20,000 nt of DNA. Origin: Myxococcota bacterium. Lineage in GTDB: Bacteria > Myxococcota_C > UBA6777. Each line of letters opens with the position of its first letter. Positions within the stretch are counted from its first letter, which is position 1. The translations under genes and the position numbers were made by a program. Positions 648-20,000 of this stretch are shown here, piece after piece. Location of the stretch: contig JAKLKB010000018.1 of assembly GCA_023150835.1 (NCBI GenBank), forward strand, positions 57,130 to 77,129, given 5' to 3'. Under the pieces are notes generated by a model, which worked only from the letters and a program-made list of their open reading frames with translations, ran no database searches and was not told the DNA's origin.

Positions 648-769
648 CAAAAACCCGCGTTCGCGCCCGTTGCGAGCGACTGCGTCGTTGGTTTGAAACA
701 CGATGCTCTGTTCGCCAATACGGGGTCAAGGGGTTGCGACCCCTTGCGGGGTTTGGGGCCGCGCCCCAA
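648..769 (+). repeat. Dispersed structured repeat family I (MITE/REP-like), copy A
   Basis: Shares blocks AAAAACCCGCGTTCGCG..GCGAC..GTCGTTGGTTTGAAA..TTCGCC..CGGGGTCAAGGG with copies B-E. Hairpins CAAGGGGT-TGCG-ACCCCTTG (727-746) and TTGGGGC-CGC-GCCCCAA (753-769). Confidence 0.8.
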
Positions 770-813
770 TTCAACAAACATCCTCAGATGTACGCTTACT
801 CAGACGGCGAGCC

Positions 814-861
814 GTTGCGGCCCCTTGCGGGGTGTGAGGCAGCGCCCCTAATTCAACAAAC
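814..861 (+). repeat. Partial tandem duplication of the 3' part of copy A
   Basis: GTTGCGGCCCCTTGCGGGGTGTGAGGCAGCGCCCCTAATTCAACAAAC closely matches 733-779. Confidence 0.8.
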
Positions 862-902
862 CCCACCGCCTCCCTTCTCTTTCTACCCAAGGAGCTCCCA
901 AG

Positions 903-1871
903 ATGGACAAGATTCTACAAAAAGCTGGATACACCGAACAACAATACACACACGGCGCTGTTACGCTCAATTACGCGGTCAGTCCGCCCAAACAACGCGC
1001 TCTCTTGCTTATCCCCGGCCAGACGATGCCTTGGCAAAGCTACACCCGCGTCCTTCCTGCGCTCGCACAACACTTCCAAGTCTACGCGCTGGATATCCAC
1101 GGACACGGGCGCTCTTCACGCTGCCCACAACGCTACACCTTCGAGGCCATCACCGAAGATCTCGTCGCCTTTCTTCACAACGTCGTTCAGCGCCCCGCCT
1201 TTTTGTCGGGTAATTCTTCAGGCGGCCTATTTGTCACATGGATGGCCGCCCAAGCCCCCGATTATGCGCAAGGCGTCATCGCCGAAGATCCGCCTTTTTT
1301 TAGCAGCGAACATCCCCGACTCCAACAATGCTTTGTATACCACGTGATGAAGCTATTTCTCGAAACCCTTGATCGCCCCGAAGGACGAGACTTGGGCGCG
1401 CTCTTTCAACGCCTAGAGATCCCGCACAAAAGCGGAAAGCGCGTCTCCAAAATCCCGATGTTCCTCGCTCGCCTTCTTTCTTCGTGGCTTCAACGCCGCC
1501 AAGCCAAAACCCCCGACCAGCCGCTCGATATCCCTTGGTTGCCCCTCCAACTCCGCCTCACCATCCGCTCTTTTTCCGAATACGACCCCGCCTTCACACG
1601 TGCCTTCTACGAAAACACGATGGCGGGAAGCTTCGATCACGCTGCCATGCTCGCAAAGATCCAATGCCCCTTCGCTCTGATCCACGCCAACTGGTTTGTT
1701 CACGAAAAATTCGGACTCGTCGGTGCGATGCTCCAAGAAGAAGCCCAGCGCGTTTGCTCGCTCGTCCCCCAAACTCGCTATCTCCCTGTCTCTGCGGGGC
1801 ATGTCGTCCACCTCGAAGCCCCAAAACTTTTCCTCCAAATTATCGACGACTTCACAAACGACGCAGTATAG
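903..1871 (+). CDS. Alpha/beta fold hydrolase
   Basis: LLLIPG oxyanion region, ALDIHGHGRS motif, nucleophile elbow GNSSGG, C-terminal catalytic His in AGHVVHLEAP. AAGGAG RBS upstream. Confidence 0.9.
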   Translation: MDKILQKAGYTEQQYTHGAVTLNYAVSPPKQRALLLIPGQTMPWQSYTRVLPALAQHFQVYALDIHGHGRSSRCPQRYTFEAITEDLVAFLHNVVQRPAFLSGNSSGGLFVTWMAAQAPDYAQGVIAEDPPFFSSEHPRLQQCFVYHVMKLFLETLDRPEGRDLGALFQRLEIPHKSGKRVSKIPMFLARLLSSWLQRRQAKTPDQPLDIPWLPLQLRLTIRSFSEYDPAFTRAFYENTMAGSFDHAAMLAKIQCPFALIHANWFVHEKFGLVGAMLQEEAQRVCSLVPQTRYLPVSAGHVVHLEAPKLFLQIIDDFTNDAV

Positions 1872-1903
1872 GCTCTGATCAATCTCGTCCGTGTAGGCTC
1901 CGA

Positions 1904-2389
1904 TCAATCTCCTTGCTTTCCCAACGAACGCAACTTTTCGTCTTGCAAGCATTTCGTCAACAAACGATCCAAAGCATTCGCAAAGCTCCGTTTATCGGCC
2001 TCTCCAAACGGCCTTGGCCCTCCCGTCTGCACACCTGAATCACGAAGATCCTGCATAAAGTCCCGAACCGACAAGCGTTCGCGCACATTCTCTTCCGTAT
2101 ACAACTCCCCATGATTGCTCATCGCAACACCCCCCGCTTCGATCACCAACGCCGCCAACGGGATATCGGATGTCACCACCAGATCCCCCAACCCCACGCG
2201 CTGCGCAATGTAATGATCCGCAACATCAAAGCCCTTTTCCACCACCACTTGCGACAAATACGGCGATTGTAACAGGTACATCCCACGATTCGCCACAAAA
2301 CAAGCACGGACTCTTCGCTTTTCCGCAACACGAAACAAGATATCTTTGATCGCCTTCGGCGTTGCATCGGCATCCACCCAGATCTGCAA
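1904..2389 (-). CDS. yaiI: YaiI/YqxD (UPF0178, DUF188) family protein
   Basis: IWVDADA N-terminus, DLVVTSDIPLAA, and LRDSGVQTGGP..F...D...FANALDR signature. TTG at 2389 follows GAGGAGG (ORF track extends to 2410). Confidence 0.9.
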   Translation of the reverse strand: MQIWVDADATPKAIKDILFRVAEKRRVRACFVANRGMYLLQSPYLSQVVVEKGFDVADHYIAQRVGLGDLVVTSDIPLAALVIEAGGVAMSNHGELYTEENVRERLSVRDFMQDLRDSGVQTGGPRPFGEADKRSFANALDRLLTKCLQDEKLRSLGKQGD

Positions 2390-2423
2390 ACGAAACCTCC
2401 TCTCAATCAATTAGGTTTGTTTT

Positions 2424-2566
2424 TGTGGGGCTTTGCCCCACACCCCACTGCCTTAGCGCGGCTCCCTTGACCCCGTATCGGCGGAGTGATCAGTGGTTTT
2501 TCAAACAAACATCCCTGCCGCTTCAAATAACGCGAACACGGGGTTTTTGCAAACAGCATCACTCCG
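2424..2566 (-). repeat. Family I repeat, copy B
   Basis: Reverse complement: GGAGTGATGCTGTTTGCAAAAACCCCGTGTTCGCG..GAAGCGG..TTTGTTTGAAAAA..CCGCCGATACGGGGTCAAGGGAGCCGCGCTAAGG..TGTGGGGC-AAA-GCCCCACA. Retains the left terminal repeat. Confidence 0.8.
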
Positions 2567-2575
2567 ATAAGAAAA

Positions 2576-4258
2576 TTATTCGTCAAGATCTACGTCTTTT
2601 TCTTCTTTCTTCTCTGGTTTTTTCTCTTCTCTTTTTTTCTCTTTTGCGGTTTCTTTGCAAAGACAGCGTCCCTGCTCACCTTTTGGACCCATCGGTCCCT
2701 TGTCACCTTTCAACCCTTTCGGACCCATCGGTCCCTTGTCACCTTTCGGACCCATCGGTCCCTTGTCACCTTTCGGACCCATCGGTCCCTTATCACCTTT
2801 CGGACCCATCGGCCCCTTATCACCTTTCGGACCCTGTTCGCCTCTCAGTCCTTTCGGTCCCATCGGTCCTTGCGCGCCTTGTTCACCCTGTTGGCCTCGC
2901 TGACCGACCGGACCTTGCTCACCTTGTTCTCCTTTTGTCCCCATCGGACCTTGCCGCCCCATTCGGCCCTGCTCACCTTTCGGACCTTGCTCACCTTTTG
3001 GCCCCTGTTCACCTCTCGGGCCTTGCTCACCTTTCGGTCCCATCGGACCTTGCGGGCCTTGCAGCCCAACGGAGCCTTGCTCACCTTTTGGTCCAACAGA
3101 GCCGTTCTCGCCTTTTGGACCTCGCGTTCCCATCGGTCCGACCGCTCCCGTAGCGCCTCGCTCGCCTTTCGGACCTTGTGGTCCTTGCAACCCCATCGGC
3201 CCTCGCGTTCCTGCCGCTCCAGAAACACCCTGCTCGCCTTTCGGGCCTTGCGGCCCAACGGGGCCTTGCTCGCCTTTTGGACCTTGCGCTCCTTGCGGTC
3301 CCATCGGTCCTTTCTCACCTTTCGGGCCTTGCTCGCCTTTCGGCCCCTGCGGTCCTTGCGGACCTTGCGGCCCAACGGGGCCTTGCTCACCTTTCGGTCC
3401 TTGTGGGCCGATCTTTCCAGCGATACCCTGCTCGCCTTTTGGCCCCTGTGGGCCGATCTTTCCAGCGATACCCTGCTCACCTTTTGGACCTTGCGGGCCG
3501 ATCTTTCCAGCGATACCCTGCTCACCTTTTGGACCTTGCGGCCCCTGCGGACCTTGTAATCCTTGTGGACCCTGCGGTCCTTGCGGACCTTGCAGACCTT
3601 GCGAACCTCTTGGCAGAAGAACGTGTTGTATTTGCGAGCCGCAGCGAAAACGAATGACTGTACCGCGTGCCTCTTGTGAAACGCCGTCGATTTGACAGGG
3701 CGTGCCTTCGTTTCCTTTTTCTCCTTGCAAGACCATGACTTGCGCCAACGTTTTTTGCTGGCTGCCAAAGAATCCCACCAAAACAAACAGCCCTGCACGC
3801 AATGTTTGCGGCAGATGGATCTCGCGTTTCATCGAAGTTCCTCCTTGAAGAATTTGAAAACCTTGCTCGCGTCCGTAATGTTGTTTGGGTTCACGCTCCG
3901 AGACAAGAGAAACACCCGTCAGCACGTCAAGATGTTCGCCATGTATCGTCCACCGCGAACGAAACCGCCGCGAAGCCATCTTTGCAAAAGACGGCTTTGC
4001 TTGCTCAGAAGAAAAAACGATGGGGGACAACGTACCCTCACCTTCGATAGAGAGGACTTTTGCGTTGTGAAAATGACGAATCATTTCTGATGCGCAATGT
4101 CCTTTTTGACATACCAAGCCTGACAGACAATCTGTATCACGCTTGCAAGGTCGCCCAAGCCCACCGTCTTGGCAACCCGTCACAAACAGCGACAGAAAAA
4201 ACCACAGCCACACGCTGCGCTGTAATCCAATCCAAACACCTCGAACCCTCGCTCTCAT
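2576..4258 (-). CDS. Collagen-like (Gly-X-Y) putative lipoprotein
   Basis: Hydrophobic leader ending FVTG-C, Cys-rich module [18 protein letters not shown], a globular domain, 105 uninterrupted G-X-Y triplets (3607 to 2663), CLC, and a K/E-rich tail. ATG at 4258 follows AGGAGG (track start 4294). Confidence 0.9.
2663..3607 (-). repeat. Coding tandem repeats of the collagen domain (9-bp periodicity; 45-bp x3 and 27-bp x4 sub-repeats)
   Basis: [15 protein letters not shown] x3 and GPKGDKGPM x4, near-identical at DNA level. Confidence 0.9.
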
Positions 4259-4314
4259 CAACCCCTCCTGTACCATGCGCTCGCCATCCGCCAAAGCAGA
4301 TCAACTCTCTTGAT

Positions 4315-4484
4315 AAAACTCACGCTCCCAACAAAAAACCCCGTGTTCGGGTAGGTTCAAGCGGAGCCGTCGTTGGTTTGAAAAAACTCAGTTCGCCCCG
4401 CCAAGTCGGGGTCAAGGGGCCTTTGGTCCCTTGCGGGGCGTGGTACCTCGCCCCACAAAGACAATTCCAACCGCGCAACCTCTA
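4315..4484 (+). repeat. Family I repeat, copy C (apparently full length, decayed ends)
   Basis: Core AAAAAACCCCGTGTTCGG..TCAAGCGG..GTCGTTGGTTTGAAAA..CCGCC..CGGGGTC, hairpin CAAGGGGCC-TTT-GGTCCCTTG, GGGGCG..CGCCCC. 3' CCAACCGCGCAACCTCTA (4467-4484) matches the right TIR of copy D at 13/18. Confidence 0.8.
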
Positions 4485-4624
4485 CCTTGAAACAAGGCTC
4501 TTCACTTTTACAATGCCCGAAGACACAAAGCAACTTCGCCCCGCTCTGCGCGACACTTTTCTTGCGGCCTCGTCCTGCGGGCTGGAGTTCGATCACTCTC
4601 ACAAAAACAAAAAAGGAGTCCGAC

Positions 4625-6016
4625 ATGAAATCCCTTCCCTTCCGTCCACCTTCACCAGACGCATCGGCCCAAGAGATCGACCCTTCTCGCGGAAGTCTTC
4701 GCTCTGTTCGAAAATTCTCAGGACTCGCGCTTGGCTTGTTCTTCCTCTCCGTCTCCATATCGCCAACGACAGCCCAAACAACTCCCCCCACAACCACCCG
4801 ACACCGTAAGCCCACTCTTCCCAAAACAGCACCACGCCCCGTCCTTCCGACATCAAGGGCCACACAACACAACCAAGCTGCCCCACATGCCCCGCCCAGT
4901 TTCACTTTCCTCAACCCACTACGCGGCGGTTATCCTTATGTGCAAAGCGTTGCATTCTCCGATCGAGGGGATCGCGTGATCGTGGGAGCCGCAGGAAAAG
5001 ATGGCGGAGTCCGTTCTTGGTCTTGGTGGTCAGGCATTGAGCAAGAATTCGCAAGTCCGTACGGAGATATCGTACAAGTGAGCTTCCTTCAAAAAGAAAG
5101 CTTTTTTGGTGCTTGGCGCGTGTATACGCCGGGAGATGGTCTAAATGGAAATCAATTCACGATCCACAAGATCGGCCAAAAAGATCCTATTTTAAGTGGA
5201 GAGTATGGAACTTCTTTTGCAACTTTTTCTCATTCAGCTCCACAAACCGCGCTTGTTGGCGGTTGGAGCAAGATCGCTTTCTTTGCCTCGGGAAAAACCC
5301 AAGGCTCGTTGCCGAACAAGGCTGAACGCCCCGATACCACAGCGATCACACTTTCTTCCAACGGTCGTTATGCCGCCATCTCCCAACGCAACGCCACCAA
5401 AGACATCAAAAAATACCACGATGAGATACTCTGGATCGACACCTTCAAAAAAAAGATTCTGACAACAACGATACGACCTTTTTCATATCCACTCGAACGC
5501 TTGGCCTTAACGAATGATGGACACCTCGCGATCGCAACACGCGGATACGCGGAGATCTGGGATCTCAAGCGCGAAAAGCGGTTGCTCGGTATCGATCAAC
5601 AGGGGTTTCCTGAGCTTTTGCCGCTGTACTCTCCCGATCAAAAGACATTCCTACTGATCAGCCAAGCCAGTATCGGCCAGTCATGGACTTACGCACGCAC
5701 CCCTTCTGGTTTCAATTTCGCCAATCCTTCCAATCACAAAGACACCAAGATCTTTTTCTACGACGCAAACACTTACAAGATTCAAAAGATCTGGACGATC
5801 CAACAATGCCTTTTTCGTACAACTTATTTCCGTTTTGGAAGTATCCGAGGCCCCGAACACAATCCTGAGCGTGTGGCCTTTTCTCCTGATGGGCGTGTCA
5901 TCGCGATCGGCTGCAATGGCGGCGTGCTTTTCTTTGACAGATCGCTGAACCAACAAATCAAAGGCATTCCTTGGATGGTCCGCCGTCCTCTCCAACAACA
6001 ACCCCCCAAACCTTGA
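4625..6016 (+). CDS. Exported WD40/beta-propeller-like protein
   Basis: ATG 4625 after AAGGAG; hydrophobic signal-like segment and P/T-rich linker. Blade-like motifs SVAFSDRGDRVIVG, ITLSSNGRYAAI, LALTNDGHLAIA..AEIWD, YSPDQKTFLL, VAFSPDGRVIAIG. Confidence 0.75.
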   Translation: MKSLPFRPPSPDASAQEIDPSRGSLRSVRKFSGLALGLFFLSVSISPTTAQTTPPTTTRHRKPTLPKTAPRPVLPTSRATQHNQAAPHAPPSFTFLNPLRGGYPYVQSVAFSDRGDRVIVGAAGKDGGVRSWSWWSGIEQEFASPYGDIVQVSFLQKESFFGAWRVYTPGDGLNGNQFTIHKIGQKDPILSGEYGTSFATFSHSAPQTALVGGWSKIAFFASGKTQGSLPNKAERPDTTAITLSSNGRYAAISQRNATKDIKKYHDEILWIDTFKKKILTTTIRPFSYPLERLALTNDGHLAIATRGYAEIWDLKREKRLLGIDQQGFPELLPLYSPDQKTFLLISQASIGQSWTYARTPSGFNFANPSNHKDTKIFFYDANTYKIQKIWTIQQCLFRTTYFRFGSIRGPEHNPERVAFSPDGRVIAIGCNGGVLFFDRSLNQQIKGIPWMVRRPLQQQPPKP

Positions 6017-6123
6017 TTGTCGAACGAATACAGCGAACCCATCGCACCCGAACGGCTCCCACCCCAAACTTTGCTCCCCAACGCCCCACAAAACAAATCG
6101 AGACGGCGTCGCTCAAACGGTAT

Positions 6124-7545
6124 TTATGGCTGTTTGCAAGCGCCCAACGACTGAACCGAAACGCCCAATCGTGCGGCTTCGCAATCGTTACTGTACGTTT
6201 TACCGTCACAACCGCACACAGGCTTGTATTCTCCACGACAACCTGTGGGCTTGGGCATACAAACCCCGGGATGATCGGCGGCTCCGCACATCGCGGTCAA
6301 GCTGTACTGACAATACTGATCGTCAGGGCAAGAGTTATCGACGCCGGGAGGAACAAGCCCACCGCATGACTTCCCAGTACAAGGCATCTTTGAGCAAAGG
6401 GCGCTTCCACCTCGGCAGGTGCAAGTATTACAGCCGTCTCCTGCGGGGAAAGACTCACCTTCTTTGTAACGTTGGCCGTTGTATACGCAAACACCCGGCT
6501 GGCTTTTGCATTCGCCCTCGTATTGTACAGAAAGGCCCGCCATCGCGGCATCACAAGCATTGCTATAAGTCTTTCCATCGCAGCCACACACAGGCTGATG
6601 GATCAGGTTGCAGCTTTTGGGCTTATCAACACAAACACCCGTTCCATCGTCAAATCCGCAGCCTTTTTCGATCTTGCAATACTTCCCATCGGCACAGCGA
6701 AGTCCTGCTTCCCCTCCACAAAACGATTCTGCGCAAGCTTCATCCGTACAAGCCACTTTTCCTTTGAAGCACGAACACTTGCTTCCTTTATCACAGAACG
6801 ATTCTCCGTCTTTGTAGATCTTACCGTTGAACTCGCACTGTTGAGGTGTTGCACAAGCGCCGATCTTGGCTGCGGATGTTCCTGCTGCGTTGGCTGCGCA
6901 CTCGTTTTCGTACGTTTTCCCGTCGCATCCACAAACAGGCGCATAATACTCGGGGCATCCTGAGGGCTTGACTTTGCAAACACCGGGATGATCGGCAGCA
7001 CCGCACATCTTGTCCAACGTATAGTGGCAATACTGCTCGCTTGGGCAAGTGTTGTCGACGCCGGGTGCAACGTGACCACCGCAAGATTTTTCCGTACAAT
7101 TTTTCTTTGTGCAACTCACCCCACCGCCACTACAAACACAAGTGTTACAACCATCCGCCGCAGGAAACGTGCTGCCTTCTTTGTATGTTTTGCCTTGAAA
7201 CAAGCAATCTTTGGCGCACACCATCAAGGTACACATCGGCACACCGTTGCTGCACATACATGAATTGCAGCCGTCAGATGCAGGAAAAGACTCACCTTCT
7301 TTGTATGTTTTTCCTATATACGCACAGGTTTTTGGAAGACAGGCTTTCTCTGTACAACTGATTGCACCTTGCTGACAAGTACAAGTGTTGCAGCCATCGG
7401 ATGCAGCAAAGCTGCTGCCCTGCGCGTATTCTTTGCCATTGTATCGGCACACCCCCTCAGGTGTGGTCACACCGCAGCCGCTCCCCAAAACTCCAAGCAC
7501 CCACAAACCCAACGCCACCCAAAACTGCACTTTGACACGAAGCAT
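6124..7545 (-). CDS. Cys-rich lipoprotein with pacifastin/VWC-like and Kazal-type protease inhibitor domains
   Basis: Signal ending LGSG-C. Five CxYxGxxYxxGxSF..CNxCxC..G..CTxxxC modules (one degenerate) and three Kazal motifs (PVCGCDGKTYxNxCxA). Confidence 0.85.
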   Translation of the reverse strand: MLRVKVQFWVALGLWVLGVLGSGCGVTTPEGVCRYNGKEYAQGSSFAASDGCNTCTCQQGAISCTEKACLPKTCAYIGKTYKEGESFPASDGCNSCMCSNGVPMCTLMVCAKDCLFQGKTYKEGSTFPAADGCNTCVCSGGGVSCTKKNCTEKSCGGHVAPGVDNTCPSEQYCHYTLDKMCGAADHPGVCKVKPSGCPEYYAPVCGCDGKTYENECAANAAGTSAAKIGACATPQQCEFNGKIYKDGESFCDKGSKCSCFKGKVACTDEACAESFCGGEAGLRCADGKYCKIEKGCGFDDGTGVCVDKPKSCNLIHQPVCGCDGKTYSNACDAAMAGLSVQYEGECKSQPGVCVYNGQRYKEGESFPAGDGCNTCTCRGGSALCSKMPCTGKSCGGLVPPGVDNSCPDDQYCQYSLTAMCGAADHPGVCMPKPTGCRGEYKPVCGCDGKTYSNDCEAARLGVSVQSLGACKQP

Positions 7546-7848
7546 GGTTTTATCCTTCCTCTAAACATACCCGCACCTCTGATCGAGGCCAACGCAAACA
7601 CTACAACAGGCATCAATTTTCGTTCCCGCTACCTGCGACTCTCCACACATCTCTTTTTCGATCAACGGCTTCTCTTCTTTTCGCCGCCTGATTGTACTCG
7701 CTCAAAAGCAGCGGATATCCAAAGAACCCTCAAAAATCTGAGGCTCCCCCTTGCCTGTCCCCTGCGCGAATCGTTTGGGCACGACAAACACCTAAACAAT
7801 CTCGACACAGCGCATTCTATCAAAAGGTTTATTTCAAAAGGAGAAAAC

Positions 7849-8886
7849 ATGAACAACAACAAGATCCTACGCATCTCACCGCTGGGCTTTCCTTGGCAAA
7901 CACTTGATCCCTTTCTGTTCTGCGTTTATCACAAAGACGATTATCCCGAAGGGAACGAACAGATGGGACCAAGCGCAAGCCTAAAGGGCCGTTCTATCGG
8001 CGCAGACTTTGGTGGAAAAGATGGGTGGAGTATGTATCACGGCTCGACCATCCCGGGTTTCCCTCAGCATCCGCATTACGGATTTGAGACGATCACCATC
8101 GGGCGGGCTGGATACATCGATCACTCCGACTCTTTGGGTGCAACCGCCCGCTTTGGTGAAGGCGACGTGCAATGGATGACCGCAGGAAAAGGCGTCGTCC
8201 ATTCGGAGATGTTCCCTTTGGTGCATCGCGATCGGCCCAATCCAACGGAGCTTTTCCAGATCTGGCTCAATCTTCCACGCGAAGACAAAAGCAAAGATCC
8301 CTATTTCACGATGTTTTGGAAGCACCAGATCCCCATCGTCCATCACACCGATGAGATGGGCCGAAACGCGACCATCCGCGTGATCGCAGGCGCGCTCGGA
8401 GAAACACAACCCCTCGCCCCACCGCCAAGCTCTTGGGCTGCAAGGGCTTCTTCCGAGATCGCGATCTGGACGATCCAACTCGATCCCCACGCCCAATGGA
8501 CACTCCCCCCCGCTTCCAAAGAAGCCCATCGTGTCCTTTCTTTTTTCAAAGGAAAAAGCATCCACATCGAAAACAAAAAGATCGAAAACAAACACTCGAT
8601 TCAAGTACATTCAGATGCAAGTCTTTTTCTTCAAAATGGAGAAGAACCTGCGGAGATCCTTTTGCTTCAAGGGCGGCCTATCGGCGAGCCTGTCTCGCAT
8701 CACGGACCTTTTGTGGTCAATCAACCCGAAGATATACAAGCCGTGATCGCTGCGTATCAACGCACAGGCTTTGGGGGCTGGCCTTGGGGCGATCATGGGC
8801 CTGTCCATCCACGAGAAGCCAAGCGGTTCGCCATCCACGCCGATGGGCGCAAAGAAACCCCTGACGCGCCGCCACATTCTTTCTGA
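7849..8886 (+). CDS. Pirin family protein (bicupin)
   Basis: DPFLFCVYH, GFPQHPHYGFETIT, HSDSLG, GDVQWMTAGKGVVHSEM, FQIWLNLP, GRPIGEPV..HGPFVVN. ATG 7849 after AAGGAG; the upstream extension to 7369 is likely spurious. Confidence 0.95.
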   Translation: MNNNKILRISPLGFPWQTLDPFLFCVYHKDDYPEGNEQMGPSASLKGRSIGADFGGKDGWSMYHGSTIPGFPQHPHYGFETITIGRAGYIDHSDSLGATARFGEGDVQWMTAGKGVVHSEMFPLVHRDRPNPTELFQIWLNLPREDKSKDPYFTMFWKHQIPIVHHTDEMGRNATIRVIAGALGETQPLAPPPSSWAARASSEIAIWTIQLDPHAQWTLPPASKEAHRVLSFFKGKSIHIENKKIENKHSIQVHSDASLFLQNGEEPAEILLLQGRPIGEPVSHHGPFVVNQPEDIQAVIAAYQRTGFGGWPWGDHGPVHPREAKRFAIHADGRKETPDAPPHSF

Positions 8887-8901
8887 TCGCGGTAGAAATG
8901 A

Positions 8902-11313
8902 CTAATGTTTTCGTGATGAGAATCTTCGCCAGATCGCCCACCCGATCGCCAGCGGGATCAGCAAGAAAAATCCACCCGCCGAAAACGCTGCACCTGCCGC
9001 TCGAAACATCGCGGCCAACCCTTGCTCAAAGACTTCGTCGTGGATCAGGTATGTCCATGTCGAGGAGGGCCGCTCCATGCCCGAGCGATCCAGCACAAAC
9101 CCTTGGGCCTCCCAACGAGAAGAGCGAAAGGTGCGCAACACACGTCGCGGGATCTCTTCTTCCATCGCTTCGTACGCGGCGATCGCTTGTTGGCAAAAGA
9201 CCACAAAGGGATCATGCCCTGCGGCGCTTTGTAAATGGATCCCTTCTCGGATATCTGCCAGCCGTGCGAGGTGCTCTGCCCAACACGCATCCAGATGAAA
9301 CAACGCAACTTCCCGAACCATCGACTGCAACGCCGCTTCTCCCACTTCTCCAAGCAGGCGATCTACCAAAGCAGGCTCCGCCTCTTTTAACACTTCATTC
9401 CAGTCTTTTTCTCCAAGCAATAGGTCTTTTCGCATCTCAGAAAACGCCAAACGCTGCTCTTCAACAAAAGACGAATACCGAAACAGCGTCTGGCGGATCG
9501 TATAATTTTGCCCTTCGACGATGCGTTGTGTGCGCTCCACCGCTTTCAACAGAGCAGGGTTATCGAGTGGTTCGCCTTCTTCTGTGGGCAAAAAGCGCTT
9601 GGGTATGGAGTCGATCACACGAAAACGCTGCATCAGATCGTCTTCTAGGCTGATAAAAAAACAAGACGAACCCGGATCGCCTTGTCTTCCTGATCGACCG
9701 CGTAGCTGATCGTCGATCCGCACGCTCTCATGGCGATTTGTGCCGATCACATACAGCCCCCCAGCCTTGACCACCGCTGCTCTCTCTGCTTCGTCGGCTC
9801 CCCCCAACTTGATATCCACGCCGCGCCCGGCCATATTCGTGGAGATCGTCACCGCAGCCAAACGCCCTGCTTGTGCGATGATCTCCGCTTCTCGATCATC
9901 GGTTCGTGCATTTAAGACTTGGTGAGATATCCCTAAAATATGTAATCGTTTAGAGATCAATTCTGATTCTTCAACACTACATGTTCCGACAAGAACAGGC
10001 CGACCTTGTTTCTGACAAGCTTGGACGGCTTGCAAGATGGCGTCGTGCTTGGCTTGTTTTGTTGCGTACAGGCGATCAGGTTCATCCACGCGGATACAAG
10101 GGCGATACGTGGGAAGAACAACCACAGACGAACCATAAAACAAAGCAAACTCGGCTTGGGCGGGGCGCGCTGTTCCTGTCATGCCTGCGATCTGCTCGTA
10201 TTGCCGCATCAAATGTTGCAGCGCGATCGAGCCAAGGATCTGCCCTTCGGGTTGCAAGGCCAAGCCTTCTTTCGCTTCGAGGGCTGCTTGGATCCCGTCG
10301 GGCCATTGGCGATCTTCGACCACGCGCCCTGTCCACTCATCGACAAGCTCGATTTTTCCGTCTCGTACGATGTAATCCACATCTTTGTGCAGCAAGATCA
10401 ACGCATGCAGCGCCACATGGATCCCAGCCAACAACGCCTGATTTTCAGACGCATGCAAGGAACCACACCCCAAACGTTCTTCAAGATGCGCAAGACCTTC
10501 TTCTGTCAGGTATACCAAACGCTGGAATTCATCTGTCCGAATGTGACGCTCTAACACCAGCTCTTTTACTAACGCGGCCAATCGGTGGGGTTCTGCGCGT
10601 GTATCCCGCTTTCCTCCCGCGATCACCAACGGGATGCGCGCCTCATCGATCAAGATCGAATCCGCCTCATCCACGATCGCAAACGAAAAGGGCCGATGCA
10701 CCATGGCCTCCGAAGATTGCACAAGCTGATCACGCAAAAAATCAAATCCTGCTTCTTTGGCTGTTGCATACGTGATCTCCGCGGCCCACGCAGCTTTTCG
10801 CTCTGCGGGCGTCAGGTCTTTTTGAATACAACCCACAGAAACACCCAAAAAATCGAAGACGGCTCCCATCCATCGGGCATCACGTTGTGCCAGATAGTCA
10901 TTAAACGTCAGGATATGCACTCCCTTTCCCTGCAACGACCGCAAAAAAGCAGGCATCACCGCCGCAAGTGTTTTGCCTTCCCCCGTTTGCATCTCCACGA
11001 TCTTGCCTTGGTGCATCACGATTCCCGCCATCATCTGCGTATCAAACGGACGCAAACCCACGCACCGATCCGCCACTTCGCGCACCAACGCAAACGCCTC
11101 GACCAACAGAGCATCCAACGCTCTCCCCGTCGATACCGCCTGACGCAAACGCGCAGCGCGTTCTTTCAACGAAGCGTCCTGCTCTTGCTTCAACCCGCCT
11201 TCAAGCGCACGAATCTGCTCCAACAGCGGCGCATACACTCTGGTATCATAGGCGATGGGTTCTTCGCGAAGGCGACTCAGCCATCGACGAAACCTTCCGG
11301 GGATCGGCTGCAT
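8902..11313 (-). CDS. secA2: SecA paralog, SecA2-like preprotein translocase ATPase
   Basis: EMQTGEGKT Walker A, NDYLAQRDA, IVDEADSILIDEAR, TNMAGRGVDI, HESVRIDDQLRGRSGRQGDPG. 803 aa, with no C-terminal Cys Zn-binding/SecB tail. Confidence 0.85.
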   Translation of the reverse strand: MQPIPGRFRRWLSRLREEPIAYDTRVYAPLLEQIRALEGGLKQEQDASLKERAARLRQAVSTGRALDALLVEAFALVREVADRCVGLRPFDTQMMAGIVMHQGKIVEMQTGEGKTLAAVMPAFLRSLQGKGVHILTFNDYLAQRDARWMGAVFDFLGVSVGCIQKDLTPAERKAAWAAEITYATAKEAGFDFLRDQLVQSSEAMVHRPFSFAIVDEADSILIDEARIPLVIAGGKRDTRAEPHRLAALVKELVLERHIRTDEFQRLVYLTEEGLAHLEERLGCGSLHASENQALLAGIHVALHALILLHKDVDYIVRDGKIELVDEWTGRVVEDRQWPDGIQAALEAKEGLALQPEGQILGSIALQHLMRQYEQIAGMTGTARPAQAEFALFYGSSVVVLPTYRPCIRVDEPDRLYATKQAKHDAILQAVQACQKQGRPVLVGTCSVEESELISKRLHILGISHQVLNARTDDREAEIIAQAGRLAAVTISTNMAGRGVDIKLGGADEAERAAVVKAGGLYVIGTNRHESVRIDDQLRGRSGRQGDPGSSCFFISLEDDLMQRFRVIDSIPKRFLPTEEGEPLDNPALLKAVERTQRIVEGQNYTIRQTLFRYSSFVEEQRLAFSEMRKDLLLGEKDWNEVLKEAEPALVDRLLGEVGEAALQSMVREVALFHLDACWAEHLARLADIREGIHLQSAAGHDPFVVFCQQAIAAYEAMEEEIPRRVLRTFRSSRWEAQGFVLDRSGMERPSSTWTYLIHDEVFEQGLAAMFRAAGAAFSAGGFFLLIPLAIGWAIWRRFSSRKH

Positions 11314-11501
11314 TTTCTCTTGTCTCCGTTCACAAAATTAAGAAAAGCCACTCCCCCCGCAAGCCACAAAGCTAAGCGGCCCCAAAACAATGGCAAGAAA
11401 AAACAACGCTTGCGCGCCCCTTCAAACCAAACCGACCCTTCGACGCAAGCCCTCTTGACGCTGTGAGCGCAAAGCACCAAGCTCGGAGCTTTGATGGAGA
11501 C

Positions 11502-11735
11502 AGGAGCGCCTTGCGGACAACCCCCCCTATGTTCTCGGCACTTCAAGCGACAGAGTCGTTGTGTTGAAAAGCCTGTGCTCTCTTCGCCCCTCTCGGGGTC
11601 AAGGGAGCCGTGCTAAGGGTGCGGGCCCGCCGCGAGGGCATTGAATCGGCACGCAGCGTCGGGTCAAGGGAGCCGTGCTAAGGGTGCGGGGCGTGGTACC
11701 TCGCCCCACAACACTGTCCAACTGCGTAAGTCCTA
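11502..11735 (+). repeat. Family I repeat, copy D, with internal 30-bp duplication and intact right TIR
   Basis: Core TCAAGCGACAGAGTCGTTGTGTTGAAAA..GCTCTCTTCGCC..CGGGGTCAAGGG. GGGTCAAGGGAGCCGTGCTAAGGGTGCGGG is exact at 11596-11625 and 11661-11690. Ends with CCAACTGCGTAAGTCCTA (11718-11735). Confidence 0.85.
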
Positions 11736-11790
11736 TTCTTACAAAGAAACCAGATCACATTGCGCAAGAAGCGCAAGAAAGGAACCTCTC

Positions 11791-12585
11791 GTGAAACTCG
11801 ATGCGCATCTACGCGAACAATGGCACCAAACCCCCGAAGGATGGCGCTTTGTGGTGCCAGAAGGATGGATGCAAGGGCGCTCGATCTTTGGTGGATTCAC
11901 GGCTGCGGCCCTTGCCGCGCTTGGCTACCGACACATCGATGCCGATCGCGTCTTGCGCACCATGAACATCCAACTGACCCATCCCACCGTCCCGGGCGAA
12001 GCGCAAGGCCAGATCACCATCCTGCGCGAAGGAAAAAATACCACATTTGCGCAAGCACAACTCTTTCAAAACGGTCAGATCACAGCCACGGCCAGTCTGA
12101 TCTTTACCAAGCCACGCGAGACTTCCAAGCCTGTGCTTCCTTCGCTGCGTTGGAGTCCCATCACCGAACCGCCCCCAGAACAACTGGACGATCTACCTTA
12201 TCTACCTGAGATCTTTCCTGAATTTACACAACACTTTGCGATGCGTTGGGCGCAAGGCTCTCCCCCGTTTTCAAGCGCTCAAGAAGCCTCTTTTTCGGGC
12301 TATTGCCGCTTTCGCAAGCCTGCGGGCGATGCCGAAGCCTTGCTTGGGCTGCTCGATGCTTGGCCTTGTCCGAGCTTTTCCATCGTGGATCGCCCGATCA
12401 TGGCCAGCACCGTCACATGGACAGCCCATCTCCTCGCTATCCCAACAGATTTCGATGGATGGTTCGCTTTTACCTACGAAACGGTCGCTGGAGAAGGAGG
12501 TTTTCATACAGCCGTCGGACGCTTGCATGACCCACAGGGAAACCTCGTCGGATGGACAGAACAGCTTGTCATCTTGTTTGATTGA
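11791..12585 (+). CDS. Acyl-CoA thioesterase (TesB-like double hotdog fold)
   Basis: W.QGRSIFGG..AA motif, ILREGKN, LLGLLDAWP, ASTVTWT, and a C-terminal G.LHDPQGNLV..EQLV.LF. GTG at 11791 after AAAGGA. Confidence 0.85.
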   Translation: MKLDAHLREQWHQTPEGWRFVVPEGWMQGRSIFGGFTAAALAALGYRHIDADRVLRTMNIQLTHPTVPGEAQGQITILREGKNTTFAQAQLFQNGQITATASLIFTKPRETSKPVLPSLRWSPITEPPPEQLDDLPYLPEIFPEFTQHFAMRWAQGSPPFSSAQEASFSGYCRFRKPAGDAEALLGLLDAWPCPSFSIVDRPIMASTVTWTAHLLAIPTDFDGWFAFTYETVAGEGGFHTAVGRLHDPQGNLVGWTEQLVILFD

Positions 12586-12615
12586 AAATAGAACTGATGC
12601 GATCGCCTCGTTTTT

Positions 12616-12866
12616 TATGGGGCGTTGCCCCATACGCGCCTTGTTAAGGTGGAAACCTCGTAGAGTCGGTCTTGATCGCCTTTTTTTTCTCCCCCCCCTC
12701 AATCCCCCCGGCCAACGGGGGGAAGTTGGAACGGGCAGCGTCTGCATTTCGTGCATACAGCGTGCGCCCCGAGGCTTCCGACTTTCGCTCCCTCCCCTGT
12801 TCACGGGGGAGGGCGGGGTGGGGGGCTTTCCTCCGCTTCACCTAATGCCTATGGGGCGTTGCCCCA
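12616..12866. repeat. Repeat family II: REPIN-like element with inverted ends and two inverted GC-rich hairpins
   Basis: TATGGGGCGTTGCCCCA at 12616-12632 and 12850-12866. The ends continue as degenerate inverted repeats (..GTTAAGGTGGAAACC vs reverse complement ..GGTGAAGCGGAGGAAAGCC). Internal hairpins CCCCCCG-GCCAA-CGGGGGG and CCCTCCCC-TGTTCACG-GGGGAGGG. Confidence 0.7.
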
Positions 12867-12992
12867 CACCCCACAAGGGACTCTCGCCCCTTGACCCCGT
12901 GAGAGGCGAACAGAGCACCATTTTTCAAGACAACCACTCTGTCGCTTGAGCGTTCGCGAACACGGCTTTTTTTGCCAACTGCGTCACTCCTA
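12850..12992 (-). repeat. Family I repeat, copy E, with intact left TIR
   Basis: Reverse complement: TAGGAGTGACGCAGTTGGCAAAAAAAGCCGTGTTCGCG..TCAAGCGACAGAGTGGTTGTCTTGAAAAATGGTGCTCTGTTCGCC..CACGGGGT-CAAGGGGC-GAGA-GTCCCTTG-TGGGGTGTGGGGCAACGCCCCA. Confidence 0.85.
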
Positions 12993-19694: not shown

Positions 19695-19767
19695 GTGGGA
19701 CGCTGCCCCATAGGCGTTAGGTTAAGCCGAGGAAAGCCCCACCCACCCCGCCCTCCCCCTTACATGG
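19695..19767 (+). repeat. Family II repeat, truncated copy F
   Basis: GTGGGACGCTGCCCCATAGGCGTTAGGTTAAGCCGAGGAAAGCCCCACCCACCCCGCCCTCCCCC aligns with the reverse complement of about 12805-12866. Confidence 0.8.
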
Positions 19768-19811: not shown

Positions 19812-20000
19812 CACGGAAAGCACGGAAAGTACGGAAAGTACGGAAAGTACGGAAAGTACGGAAAGCACGGAAAGTACGGAAAGCACGGAAAGTACGGAAA
19901 GTACGGAAAGTACGGAAAGTACGGAAAGTACGGAAAGTACGGAAAGTACGGAAAGTACGGAAAGTACGGAAAGTACGGAAAGTACGGAAAGTACGGAAAG
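19812..20000. repeat. 9-bp tandem array (YACGGAAAG)x21, continuing past the window edge
   Basis: 189 bp = 21 units. Units 1, 2, 7 and 9 are CACGGAAAG; the rest are TACGGAAAG. Confidence 0.98.

Follow-up and report, generated by a model that had tools for sequence, protein, structure and literature searches.

This locus raises the question of what keeps a common architecture in five intergenic sequences that have diverged well from one another within a 20,000-nt stretch of a Myxococcota genome (hereafter, the window). The initial annotation had described one dispersed element, and its five copies are all found where it had placed them and on the same strands, both in the sequence and as HMM matches. 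The genome-wide profile search that it recommended gives 799 matches (E ≤ 0.01) in the 7.56-Mb genome (G000) and none in the reversed genome; 646 of these matches are full-length copies. Orthologous copies were compared in a sister genome (G001).

The repeat is a gene-less MITE with IS701/ISMesi2-type inverted ends and target duplications of 5-6 bp. While its core had been located correctly, its extent had not: the true unit is larger, at about 170 bp including terminal inverted repeats (TIRs). Among 64 copies in which both TIRs have at most 3 mismatches, 51 are 168-171 bp long. In 41 copies whose TIRs have at most 2 mismatches, exact target duplications measure 5 bp in 6 copies and 6 bp in 4, where 0.1 would be expected for each length. 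The TIRs lie at fixed offsets, and a faint TIR signal persists where the opposite end is undetectable. As in other bacterial MITEs, they surround a non-coding core of 70-300 bp, and target-site duplication is accompanied by empty orthologous sites. Fifty-nine sites are empty in the other genome; 15 of these are single gaps of 170-187 bp, and 44 are not clean gaps. Copies with such an empty counterpart have fewer TIR mismatches than shared copies (6.7 vs 10.0, p=0.01).

An identical TIR surrounds 6 of the 7 IS701-type transposase loci examined, ISMesi2 included, and the likeness to the ISMesi2 group (IS701 family, NCBIfam NF049921) consists of a TIR identical over 17-18 nt together with the length of the target duplication. 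However, the ends of the MITE decay faster than its interior, and its core is unmatched in the IS701-type loci. Because the core HMM matches none of these seven loci (L232-L238), the MITE did not arise from them by deletion. G000 and G001 (assemblies 93% and 86% complete) yielded no IS701-type transposase in intact form, nor did six draft genomes queried for one, and two metagenome scans turned up no intact parent transposase. The sole trace is a 220-bp relic in G001, which combines MITE-type ends with a transposase N-terminus that is 82% identical to a 331-aa protein. A second TIR subtype exists in the family. By itself, this transposon shell is ordinary.

The element had also gone unrecognized as a named family, and a clear match to a described family was to have removed its novelty. 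This applies in part: the ends represent a known IS701 subgroup, whereas for the folded core no family was found in Rfam or in the literature searched. Rfam gave one chance match in the window, outside the elements, and 34 sub-threshold matches at five other loci, a few of them touching the edge of the module discussed below. No description of the family or the module was found in the literature searched (mostly open papers, in their main text without supplements), and the exact motif words returned primer-like matches only, one of which is relevant.

Within the window, the five copies differ greatly in how much of the shell remains. Copy A has a core at 648..768 on the + strand (HMM match 648-774, E 9e-32) and TIRs decayed beyond recognition, with mismatch fractions of 0.53 and 0.40. 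Sequence and alignment place its 3' double-hairpin module at 722..768 (+), and a partial duplicate of this module follows at 814..854 (+; HMM match 817-854 and pairwise alignment), which is missing in the G001 orthologue. Copy B (2398..2567, -) has its left TIR at 2555-2567 and a decayed right end, such that 2398 is approximate. Copy C (4314..4484, +) is 171 bp long, with decayed TIRs at 4314-4326 and 4472-4484 and flanks TCTTGA/CCTTGA. Copy D (11501..11735, +) has a perfect right TIR (11723-11735) and an internal 30-bp duplication (11596-11625 and 11661-11690) on either side of a 35-bp spacer. Copy E (12589..12992, -) has a perfect left TIR at 12980-12992, a core at 12852-12975 and a decayed right TIR at 12589-12601. 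It extends to 12589 because a second non-coding element of 223 bp (12631..12853, no strand assigned), whose ends we take to be IS186-like, sits in its last hairpin. Its insertion is marked by 11 duplicated bp, at 12620-12630 and 12854-12864; the IS186 target rule that we cite for it is given in PMC5009759. After subtraction of the insert and one target copy, copy E measures 170 bp. At the corresponding position, G001 carries another copy, inverted relative to this one.

The architecture that had been described is largely borne out, although its components differ in the evidence behind them. The compensatory exchange of GCGA..TCGC for GCGG..CCGC is real: this pair is Watson-Crick in 91% of 640 copies, compared to 49% expected, with r2 0.79. 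The CAAGGGG-N-CCCTTG hairpin is present with loops TGCG, TTT and GAGA in copies A, C and E, while the 3' arm of this third hairpin is broken in B and D, as it is in about one-third of all copies; the broken variants have spread. In B, the break is an AAGG arm variant, and the G001 orthologue has an intact arm. The terminal GGGGC..GCCCC hairpin is intact in A, B and E only, and is replaced in C and D by a recurrent variant (TACCT in C, whose G001 orthologue has the normal form). The two sides of the outer stem are complementary, yet covariation between them is no greater than column composition explains. Several G-T mismatches had been taken to imply folding of one specific strand. The excess of G-T over A-C (1032 vs 325) arises at three polymorphic columns; across the remaining 18 in the stems, the counts are 298 and 292.

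Three pairs covary, with r2 of 0.79, 0.86 and 0.73. The last of these is not helical, and joins a linker base to the centre of the last triloop. We refer to it as the loop-linker pair; the initial annotation had missed it, as it had the inverted ends and the occurrence of the 3' module in several phyla. Between the linker base and three polymorphic sites that intervene before its partner, r2 is 0.00-0.01. The pair is C747:G761 in copy A, T2447:A2433 in copy B and T12873:A12859 in copy E. A Watson-Crick combination is found there in 344 of the 373 copies in which both hairpins are intact, in 93 of 111 G001 copies and in all 40 aligned cross-phylum copies, a level that none of 500 shuffles reaches. 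Three unrelated genomes together have T:A in 56 copies, T:G in 0 and C:A in 1. All eight of eight pair-state combinations are present, in 24-53 copies each, and a tree of 250 of the 640 copies implies at least 13, 25 and 29 state changes, which are lower bounds because the tested columns were part of the tree's input. Other candidate interactions were rejected: covariation was no higher than expected for a TTCAA/TTGAA pseudoknot, a GGTTT/AAACC mini-hairpin and an alternative GCGAC hairpin, and a cap pair in the third hairpin equivalent to the loop-linker pair was unsupported.

Judging from these sequence patterns, the fold probably acts at the DNA level and is probably capped by a triplex. The triloops are purine-N-A/C in 395 of 476 cases, and the middle base of GNA loops in DNA faces the major groove (PMC3201870). 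Purine, pyrimidine and third-strand domains occur in one strand, as an intrastrand triplex requires, in the order G4-linker-G4-loop-C4. The runs are 95-98% conserved, apart from the one recurrent variant, and would allow about 4 triads. Because these G and C runs are invariant, covariation lends the triplex no support. An alternative fold, a quadruplex, could form from four G runs. The accessible text of PMC4666352 states that RNA cannot form purine-motif triplexes, and describes the BoxC, PIT and TM-ECO triplex repeats, which resemble the MITE in being intergenic and G/C-rich, with a hairpin and a third G run, in lacking strand bias and in their link to local instability. However, the domain order in the MITE is that of class I (third strand 5') rather than class II, with only those 4 or so triads; its core differs in order and sequence from the TM-ECO consensus given there and does not fit it. 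Two features of the MITE core go beyond these repeats as so described, namely a cap pair that covaries and an additional hairpin.

The 47-nt module at the 3' end is also found free of the MITE's ends. Bacillota, Synergistota, Desulfovibrio and further MAGs have it in this form, and on Bacillus plasmids it precedes mobV. A relaxed module pattern matched none of 399 genomes besides G000 and G001, and the distribution is therefore patchy; 2 viral contigs have the module. In other genomes, its 113 neighboring genes share no relationship and are mostly housekeeping.

The core outlasts the ends. Orthologues diverge by 3.6-4.7% at conserved core sites, whatever the gene context, compared with 11% in TIRs, 9% in other intergenic DNA and 19% at fourfold sites, where it is important to consider that "conserved" sites were set from G000 copies including one member of each orthologous pair and that a low-divergence filter depresses these rates. 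Over the whole core, divergence is 11%, which is not below that of other intergenic DNA. The match to conserved core sites is 0.95-0.96 throughout, from copies with intact TIRs to those whose TIRs are undetectable, and core conservation is 0.950-0.956 across four intergenic contexts. The frequency of the loop-linker pair climbs from 34/51 to 136/150 (p=2.5e-4) with TIR decay, which is only a proxy for age (both TIR subtypes, nested insertions excluded) and in which young copies are non-independent. Fifty-seven core sites conserved at 90% or more adjoin sites that are polymorphic at 50%. Replichore bias of the copies was not significant. The usual MITE pattern is thereby inverted, in that the cargo survives longer than the ends. 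These observations, with the TIRs, target-site duplications, empty sites and covariation, support the earlier proposal of a structured mobile element, non-autonomous and high in copy number, with selection on its structure.

Orthologous copies exchange short blocks for variants found elsewhere in the family. A set of 39 orthologous pairs has 42 clusters of differences, of which 19 exchange alleles that are each seen at least 5 times in the family, where 2.0 would be expected. The loop-linker state is unlike in 13 of the 39 pairs, and at least one side is mismatched in 12 of those 13.

On balance, we favor the explanation that a gene-less element with IS701 ends carries a 47-nt module that folds as single-stranded DNA and is kept in place by protein recognition. 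The module would have come first and been captured between IS ends, much as a second family in G000 captured a GTAG REP hairpin, and an ISMesi2-group transposase likely spread the element in trans. Within the module, the G4 run that lies ahead of the last hairpin may fold back on it, forming G*G-C triples in its major groove; the pyrimidine in front of that run would then meet the centre of a sheared triloop. The module is likely kept because a protein recognizes this fold; a structure-specific single-strand nuclease or recombination factor, Ssn- or RAYT-like, might nick there, after which short-patch repair from other copies would create the patchwork and intact folds would be preferentially kept or restored.

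Known systems of this type are Ssn with NTS/SRM (PMC11893778) and RAYT/TIRYT with REP/TIR (PMC3733652). As far as the accessible text of these sources goes, their repeats are likewise abundant, oriented hairpins in many phyla, sometimes inverted doublets, and read as single-stranded DNA, and the start of the module resembles the GGGGWSAS tag of the RAYT/TIRYT TIRs at 7 of 8 positions (PMC3733652). However, the MITE consensus lacks the GTAG or CGTC of REP/REPIN elements at the hairpin foot, and no module-flanked nuclease or Y1 transposase gene corresponding to those systems was found. In G000, no gene for a Y1 transposase, small GIY-YIG, DUF559, YraN or GxxExxY protein is flanked by the core; the search for the four small nucleases covered 7 genomes. 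A HUH partner was rejected: of the two weak Y1_Tnp matches in G000, one is what remains of an IS200/IS605 element and the other is a RAYT-like gene of GTAG type. Neither is core-flanked, and the latter has GTAG repeats alongside and no core within 1.5 kb. Y1_Tnp matches are absent from 3 of 5 other module-bearing genomes and present in 2. No repeat-flanked gene for a single-domain GIY-YIG protein was found in G000 or G001, and G403 has a GIY-YIG protein of 99 aa, encoded about 870 bp from a module. The 28 inverted core pairs that enclose 200-900 bp revealed no evident common protein by eye.

Among the alternatives, we regard as unlikely, and already weakened, that this is an ordinary decaying MITE whose hairpins are inherited baggage, seemingly conserved through gene conversion among copies and hairpin-templated repair with the fold unselected. 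Broken hairpin variants are indeed common and mobile, the core as a whole diverges at least as much as intergenic DNA elsewhere, z-scores for folding of the G-rich strand are modest, from -1.2 to -2.8, and the outer stem does not covary. However, neither stem repair nor conversion that lacks a bias can keep a non-helical pair at the observed r2 across unlinked intervening sites, leave highly conserved sites beside polymorphic ones or explain the same pair in other phyla. A still slightly less probable source of the conservation is an sso/ssi-like signal from small plasmids, for lagging-strand priming or single-strand conversion, that aids replication restart or conversion. The plasmids suggest this idea: all 4 MOB_V plasmids that were examined from the top matches carry the module 173-199 nt before mobV and oriented like it, 30 of 32 plasmid matches are mobilisable, and in pBMB0228 the module falls within the 370-bp oriT2 region, outside the 24-bp nic core (primer table of PMC4902927). 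Yet the Bacillus plasmids are close kin and amount to about one event, other plasmid matches do not adjoin mob, bias is weak when measured against local GC skew (296 vs 255, p=0.09) and no source was found that places an sso at the module's coordinates.

Least probable, in our estimation, is an RNA element that is co-transcribed with its neighbors and affects how stable their mRNA is or how it is processed, a role proposed for the bcr1, ERIC and Correia elements. G-T is tolerated at three columns on one strand, orientation between co-directional genes is uneven (126 sense vs 195 antisense, p=2e-5), convergent gaps are enriched (109 copies in 339 gaps vs 121 in 666 divergent gaps) and pieces occur in metatranscriptome contigs, which are unstranded with collapsed paralogues and give no strand or level. 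Against it, as against the ncRNA motif that had been offered as an option, stand equal conservation in sense, antisense, convergent and divergent contexts and the absence of an Rfam match; moreover, loop-linker pairing is at its lowest among sense copies (0.70 vs 0.86), the 3' end has no terminator-like site and the triloops are of DNA type. bcr1 of the Bacillus cereus group is similar in its size (~155-170 bp), 5-bp direct repeats, non-conserved positions and compensatory internal changes, but is described as an RNA-level cruciform (PMC3184786). To what the accessible text of that source reports of bcr1, the MITE adds a tertiary pair, context-independent conservation and a cross-phylum module.

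Returning to a single-stranded DNA module kept by protein recognition, a more far-reaching version is possible, although we advance it only tentatively. The 47-nt module would be a cross-phylum single-stranded DNA signal, a G-run-clasped hairpin with a loop-linker cap, that is read by a dedicated single-stranded DNA nuclease or primase on mobilisable plasmids and chromosomes; the IS701 shell would have amplified it about 650-fold, and it would drive short-patch exchange among copies. Natural single-stranded DNA folds beyond the simple hairpin are rarely documented, according to the accessible text of PMC5737381. A covarying tertiary pair in hundreds of copies and several phyla provides a handle for structure probing and protein pull-down, and the family is a natural data set on how 70%-identical 125-bp repeats trade patches of 4-7 nt.

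All five window copies of the repeat described in the initial annotation are present, as judged by sequence inspection and a profile HMM: A at 648-768 (+), B at 2398-2567 (-), C at 4314-4484 (+), D at 11501-11735 (+) and E at 12589-12992 (-). An Rfam search gave no match to the repeat. Across the draft genome (G000, 7.56 Mb), the profile finds 799 matches to the repeat's core, the ~125-nt structured interior; the reversed genome gives 0. There are 646 full-length copies, or one per 11.7 kb; among 640 aligned copies, the median pairwise identity is 71% and the median nearest-neighbour identity is 85%. By crude gene calls, 25/619 copies overlap an ORF. The congeneric genome G001 carries a similar load (630 candidate copies), while the repeat has no BLAST match at E<=0.001 in four further relatives (G002-G005), and the region of G002 syntenic to the window has 0 core HMM matches. 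Named records with the full element are titled Myxococcota. The window also encodes a collagen-like Gly-X-Y protein at 2576-4294 (-), whose frame reaches its stop at 2576 beside copy B, and an ORF at 8902-11313 (-) that is presumably SecA-like, judged from sequence.

The shell of the repeat is a MITE. The 13-nt sequence TAGGA(C/G)T(T/G)ACGCA sits 26-28 nt ahead of the core, with its inverted version 14-15 nt past the core, and the element measures 168-171 bp in 51 of the 64 copies in which both terminal inverted repeats (TIRs) have <=3 mismatches. Exact 5- or 6-bp target duplications occur in 10/41 copies whose two ends each have <=2 mismatches, compared with 0.2 expected. Orthologous sites were compared using 1.74 Mb of G001 (143 stretches, out of ~6.6 Mb). 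Of the G001 copies tested, 103/144 could be placed on G000 (70 shared, 31 absent, 2 inverted), and of the G000 copies tested, 86/588 could be placed on G001 (57 shared, 28 absent, 1 inverted). The 59 sites lacking the element comprise 15 with one gap of 170-187 bp and 44 that are less clean. The element's inverted repeat also borders 6 of the 7 IS701-type transposase loci examined, ISMesi2 included. In G001, a 220-bp IS701 relic (L130:1414-1633, contig C362) retains both ends and the first ~50 transposase codons; this N-terminus scores E 5e-6, far under the family cut-off, and is 82% identical to a 331-aa protein. Neither G000 nor its five relatives yielded an intact IS701-type transposase gene. 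The core has no match in any of the seven IS701-type loci, from which we infer that it was captured between IS ends. The shell was very probably spread by a transposase. Identical IS701-type ends enclose a GTAG REP hairpin in a second, younger G000 MITE family of 116-117 bp (e.g., C99:88664-88779, outside the window), with exact 5-6-bp duplications in 16/19 perfect-ended copies. A minor TIR subtype in G000 flanks, with inner ACTTGT replacing ACGCAGT, commonly occurs in copies whose opposite end is of the main type.

Three pairs in the core stand out for covariation, at model positions 43-77, 125-129 and 113-127, and inner pairs of the third hairpin exchange too. The initial annotation had proposed covarying stems; none was seen for the outer stem, and the excess of G-T mismatches that it reported is present but stems from three columns. 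The 113-127 pair, here called the loop-linker pair, belongs to no helix: it joins the pyrimidine ahead of the G4 run preceding the last hairpin (113) to the central base of the triloop in that hairpin (127). The pair's r2 is 0.73, compared with 0.00-0.01 for 113 against the polymorphic sites between the partners (118, 125 and 126). Each of the eight ways to combine the states of the three pairs is present, in 24-53 copies (of 391). On a 250-copy tree, Watson-Crick states switch no fewer than 13, 25 and 29 times for the three pairs. Block inheritance does not explain this covariation. Among copies of G000 with both hairpins intact, 344/373 keep the loop-linker pair, as do 93/111 in G001. Some last-hairpin loops in G000, such as TTCCA for TGGAA, look like common loops in reverse complement; they break the pair and are over-represented in copies with intact ends.

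Differences between orthologous copies come in blocks. Among clusters of >=3 differences, 19/42 are swaps between alleles each seen >=5 times in the family, compared with 2.0 expected; 14 of the 19 lie in the last 35 nt, and window copies B, C and D have swaps relative to G001. Because swaps frequently break the loop-linker pair, its high equilibrium level is notable. A second non-coding element, which we take to be IS186-like, is inserted into the last hairpin in 67/619 copies, including at 12631-12853 in the window. IS186 targets GGGG-N6/7-CCCC, according to passages of PMC5009759. The targets of the second element are GC hairpins, and 89/129 end-to-end reads show an 11-bp duplication (both strands, other targets included). 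Some of its copies are flanked by two different hairpin families and therefore indicate rearrangement; the element may contribute to the patchwork of core copies. It holds a BoxC-like motif near 12790-12823. Another copy begins at 19709, and a 9-bp tandem repeat at 19813-20000 continues past the window end.

The core outlasts its ends. Family-conserved core sites differ between orthologues by 3.6% (39 pairs at <=16% divergence) or 4.7% (all 56), compared with 11% at TIR positions, 9% in other intergenic DNA and 19% at fourfold sites. As TIRs decay, core conservation is steady, exact target duplications drop (14/61, 4/66, 3/141, 0/351) and the loop-linker pair rises from 34/51 to 136/150 (508 copies without nested insertions, one hairpin variant omitted). 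Since the pair is commoner where ends have decayed, the fold appears dispensable for the transposase and favoured by something else after insertion, with the caveats that the conserved sites are circularly defined and young copies are non-independent.

The fold probably acts at the DNA rather than the RNA level. The match to conserved core sites is 0.950-0.956 across sense, antisense, convergent and divergent positions, and triloops are purine-N-A/C in 395/476 cases. In passages of PMC3201870, DNA GNA loops are closed by a sheared G:A pair, with the central base directed to the major groove; sheared A:A and A:C loops are named there only in reference titles. The G4 run could fold back along the last hairpin's G strand as a triplex, a geometry that would bring position 113 next to the loop. 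Parts of PMC4666352 describe such a class I purine-motif intrastrand triplex, in which a G run folds antiparallel onto a hairpin's G strand, and say that it does not form in RNA. Alternatively, the G runs might form a quadruplex, or a protein might hold the loop-linker contact.

The last 47 nt of the core, a module of two hairpins, also occur outside the myxobacterial element. Of the 32 plasmids with a match, 29 come from Bacillus; in the 4 inspected, which were among the top matches, the module lies 173-199 nt upstream of mobV. In pBMB0228, the primer table of PMC4902927 places the module inside the 370-bp oriT2, outside its 24-bp core. A pattern scan of GTDB, permitting all four loop-linker states, found at least 91 stretches with the module (Bacillota, Synergistota, Desulfovibrionaceae, Anaerolineae, Proteobacteria and others); among the 86 matches listed, after removal of 15 with the full myxobacterial core, 70 are C:G, 15 T:A, 1 C:A and 0 T:G. 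The pair is kept in 40/40 copies of a hand-picked cross-phylum alignment, mostly one or two per organism, and 0/500 shuffles score as high. Five of the aligned genomes have 146, 83, 39, 3 and 24 copies, with 0 for the reversed pattern in each; three of these give T:A 56, T:G 0 and C:A 1. A relaxed pattern found the module in 0/399 other genomes, which counts against generality. In the unrelated genome G402, which has no Y1 transposase match, the module is frequently in inverted doublets; loci L176, L203 and L215 there are ~280-bp REPIN-like elements with inverted copies of an extended module as arms. The two genomes richest in the module have no IS701-type match, and 113 genes neighbouring it in other genomes share no common family. 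In another genome (G403:C95:41445-42552), one module copy is ~870 bp away from a frame for a 99-aa single-domain GIY-YIG protein, a proximity that could be chance given 39 copies in 2.6 Mb.

Our working analogies are Ssn with its NTS/SRM repeats (parts of PMC11893778) and RAYT/TIRYT with theirs (parts of PMC3733652); the module's membership in either is putative, and no Ssn- or RAYT/TIRYT-type gene flanked by it was found in the genomes searched. Separately, a RAYT-like gene in G000 (L002:1450-2214, contig C113) has an in-frame internal repeat (IGQAQ runs) and adjoins GTAG repeats. The nearest structured MITE is bcr1, from the portions of PMC3184786 consulted. The motif is absent from text sections of PMC6199540, PMC5737381 and PMC2267715; figures and supplements of the papers cited here (notably the triplex database, SRM alignments and stem-loop family tables) may list it. 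Taken whole, we lean towards a shell spread by a transposase and a DNA-level fold kept in place, probably because a structure-specific single-strand nuclease or recombination factor would read it: an ordinary shell with an interesting cargo.
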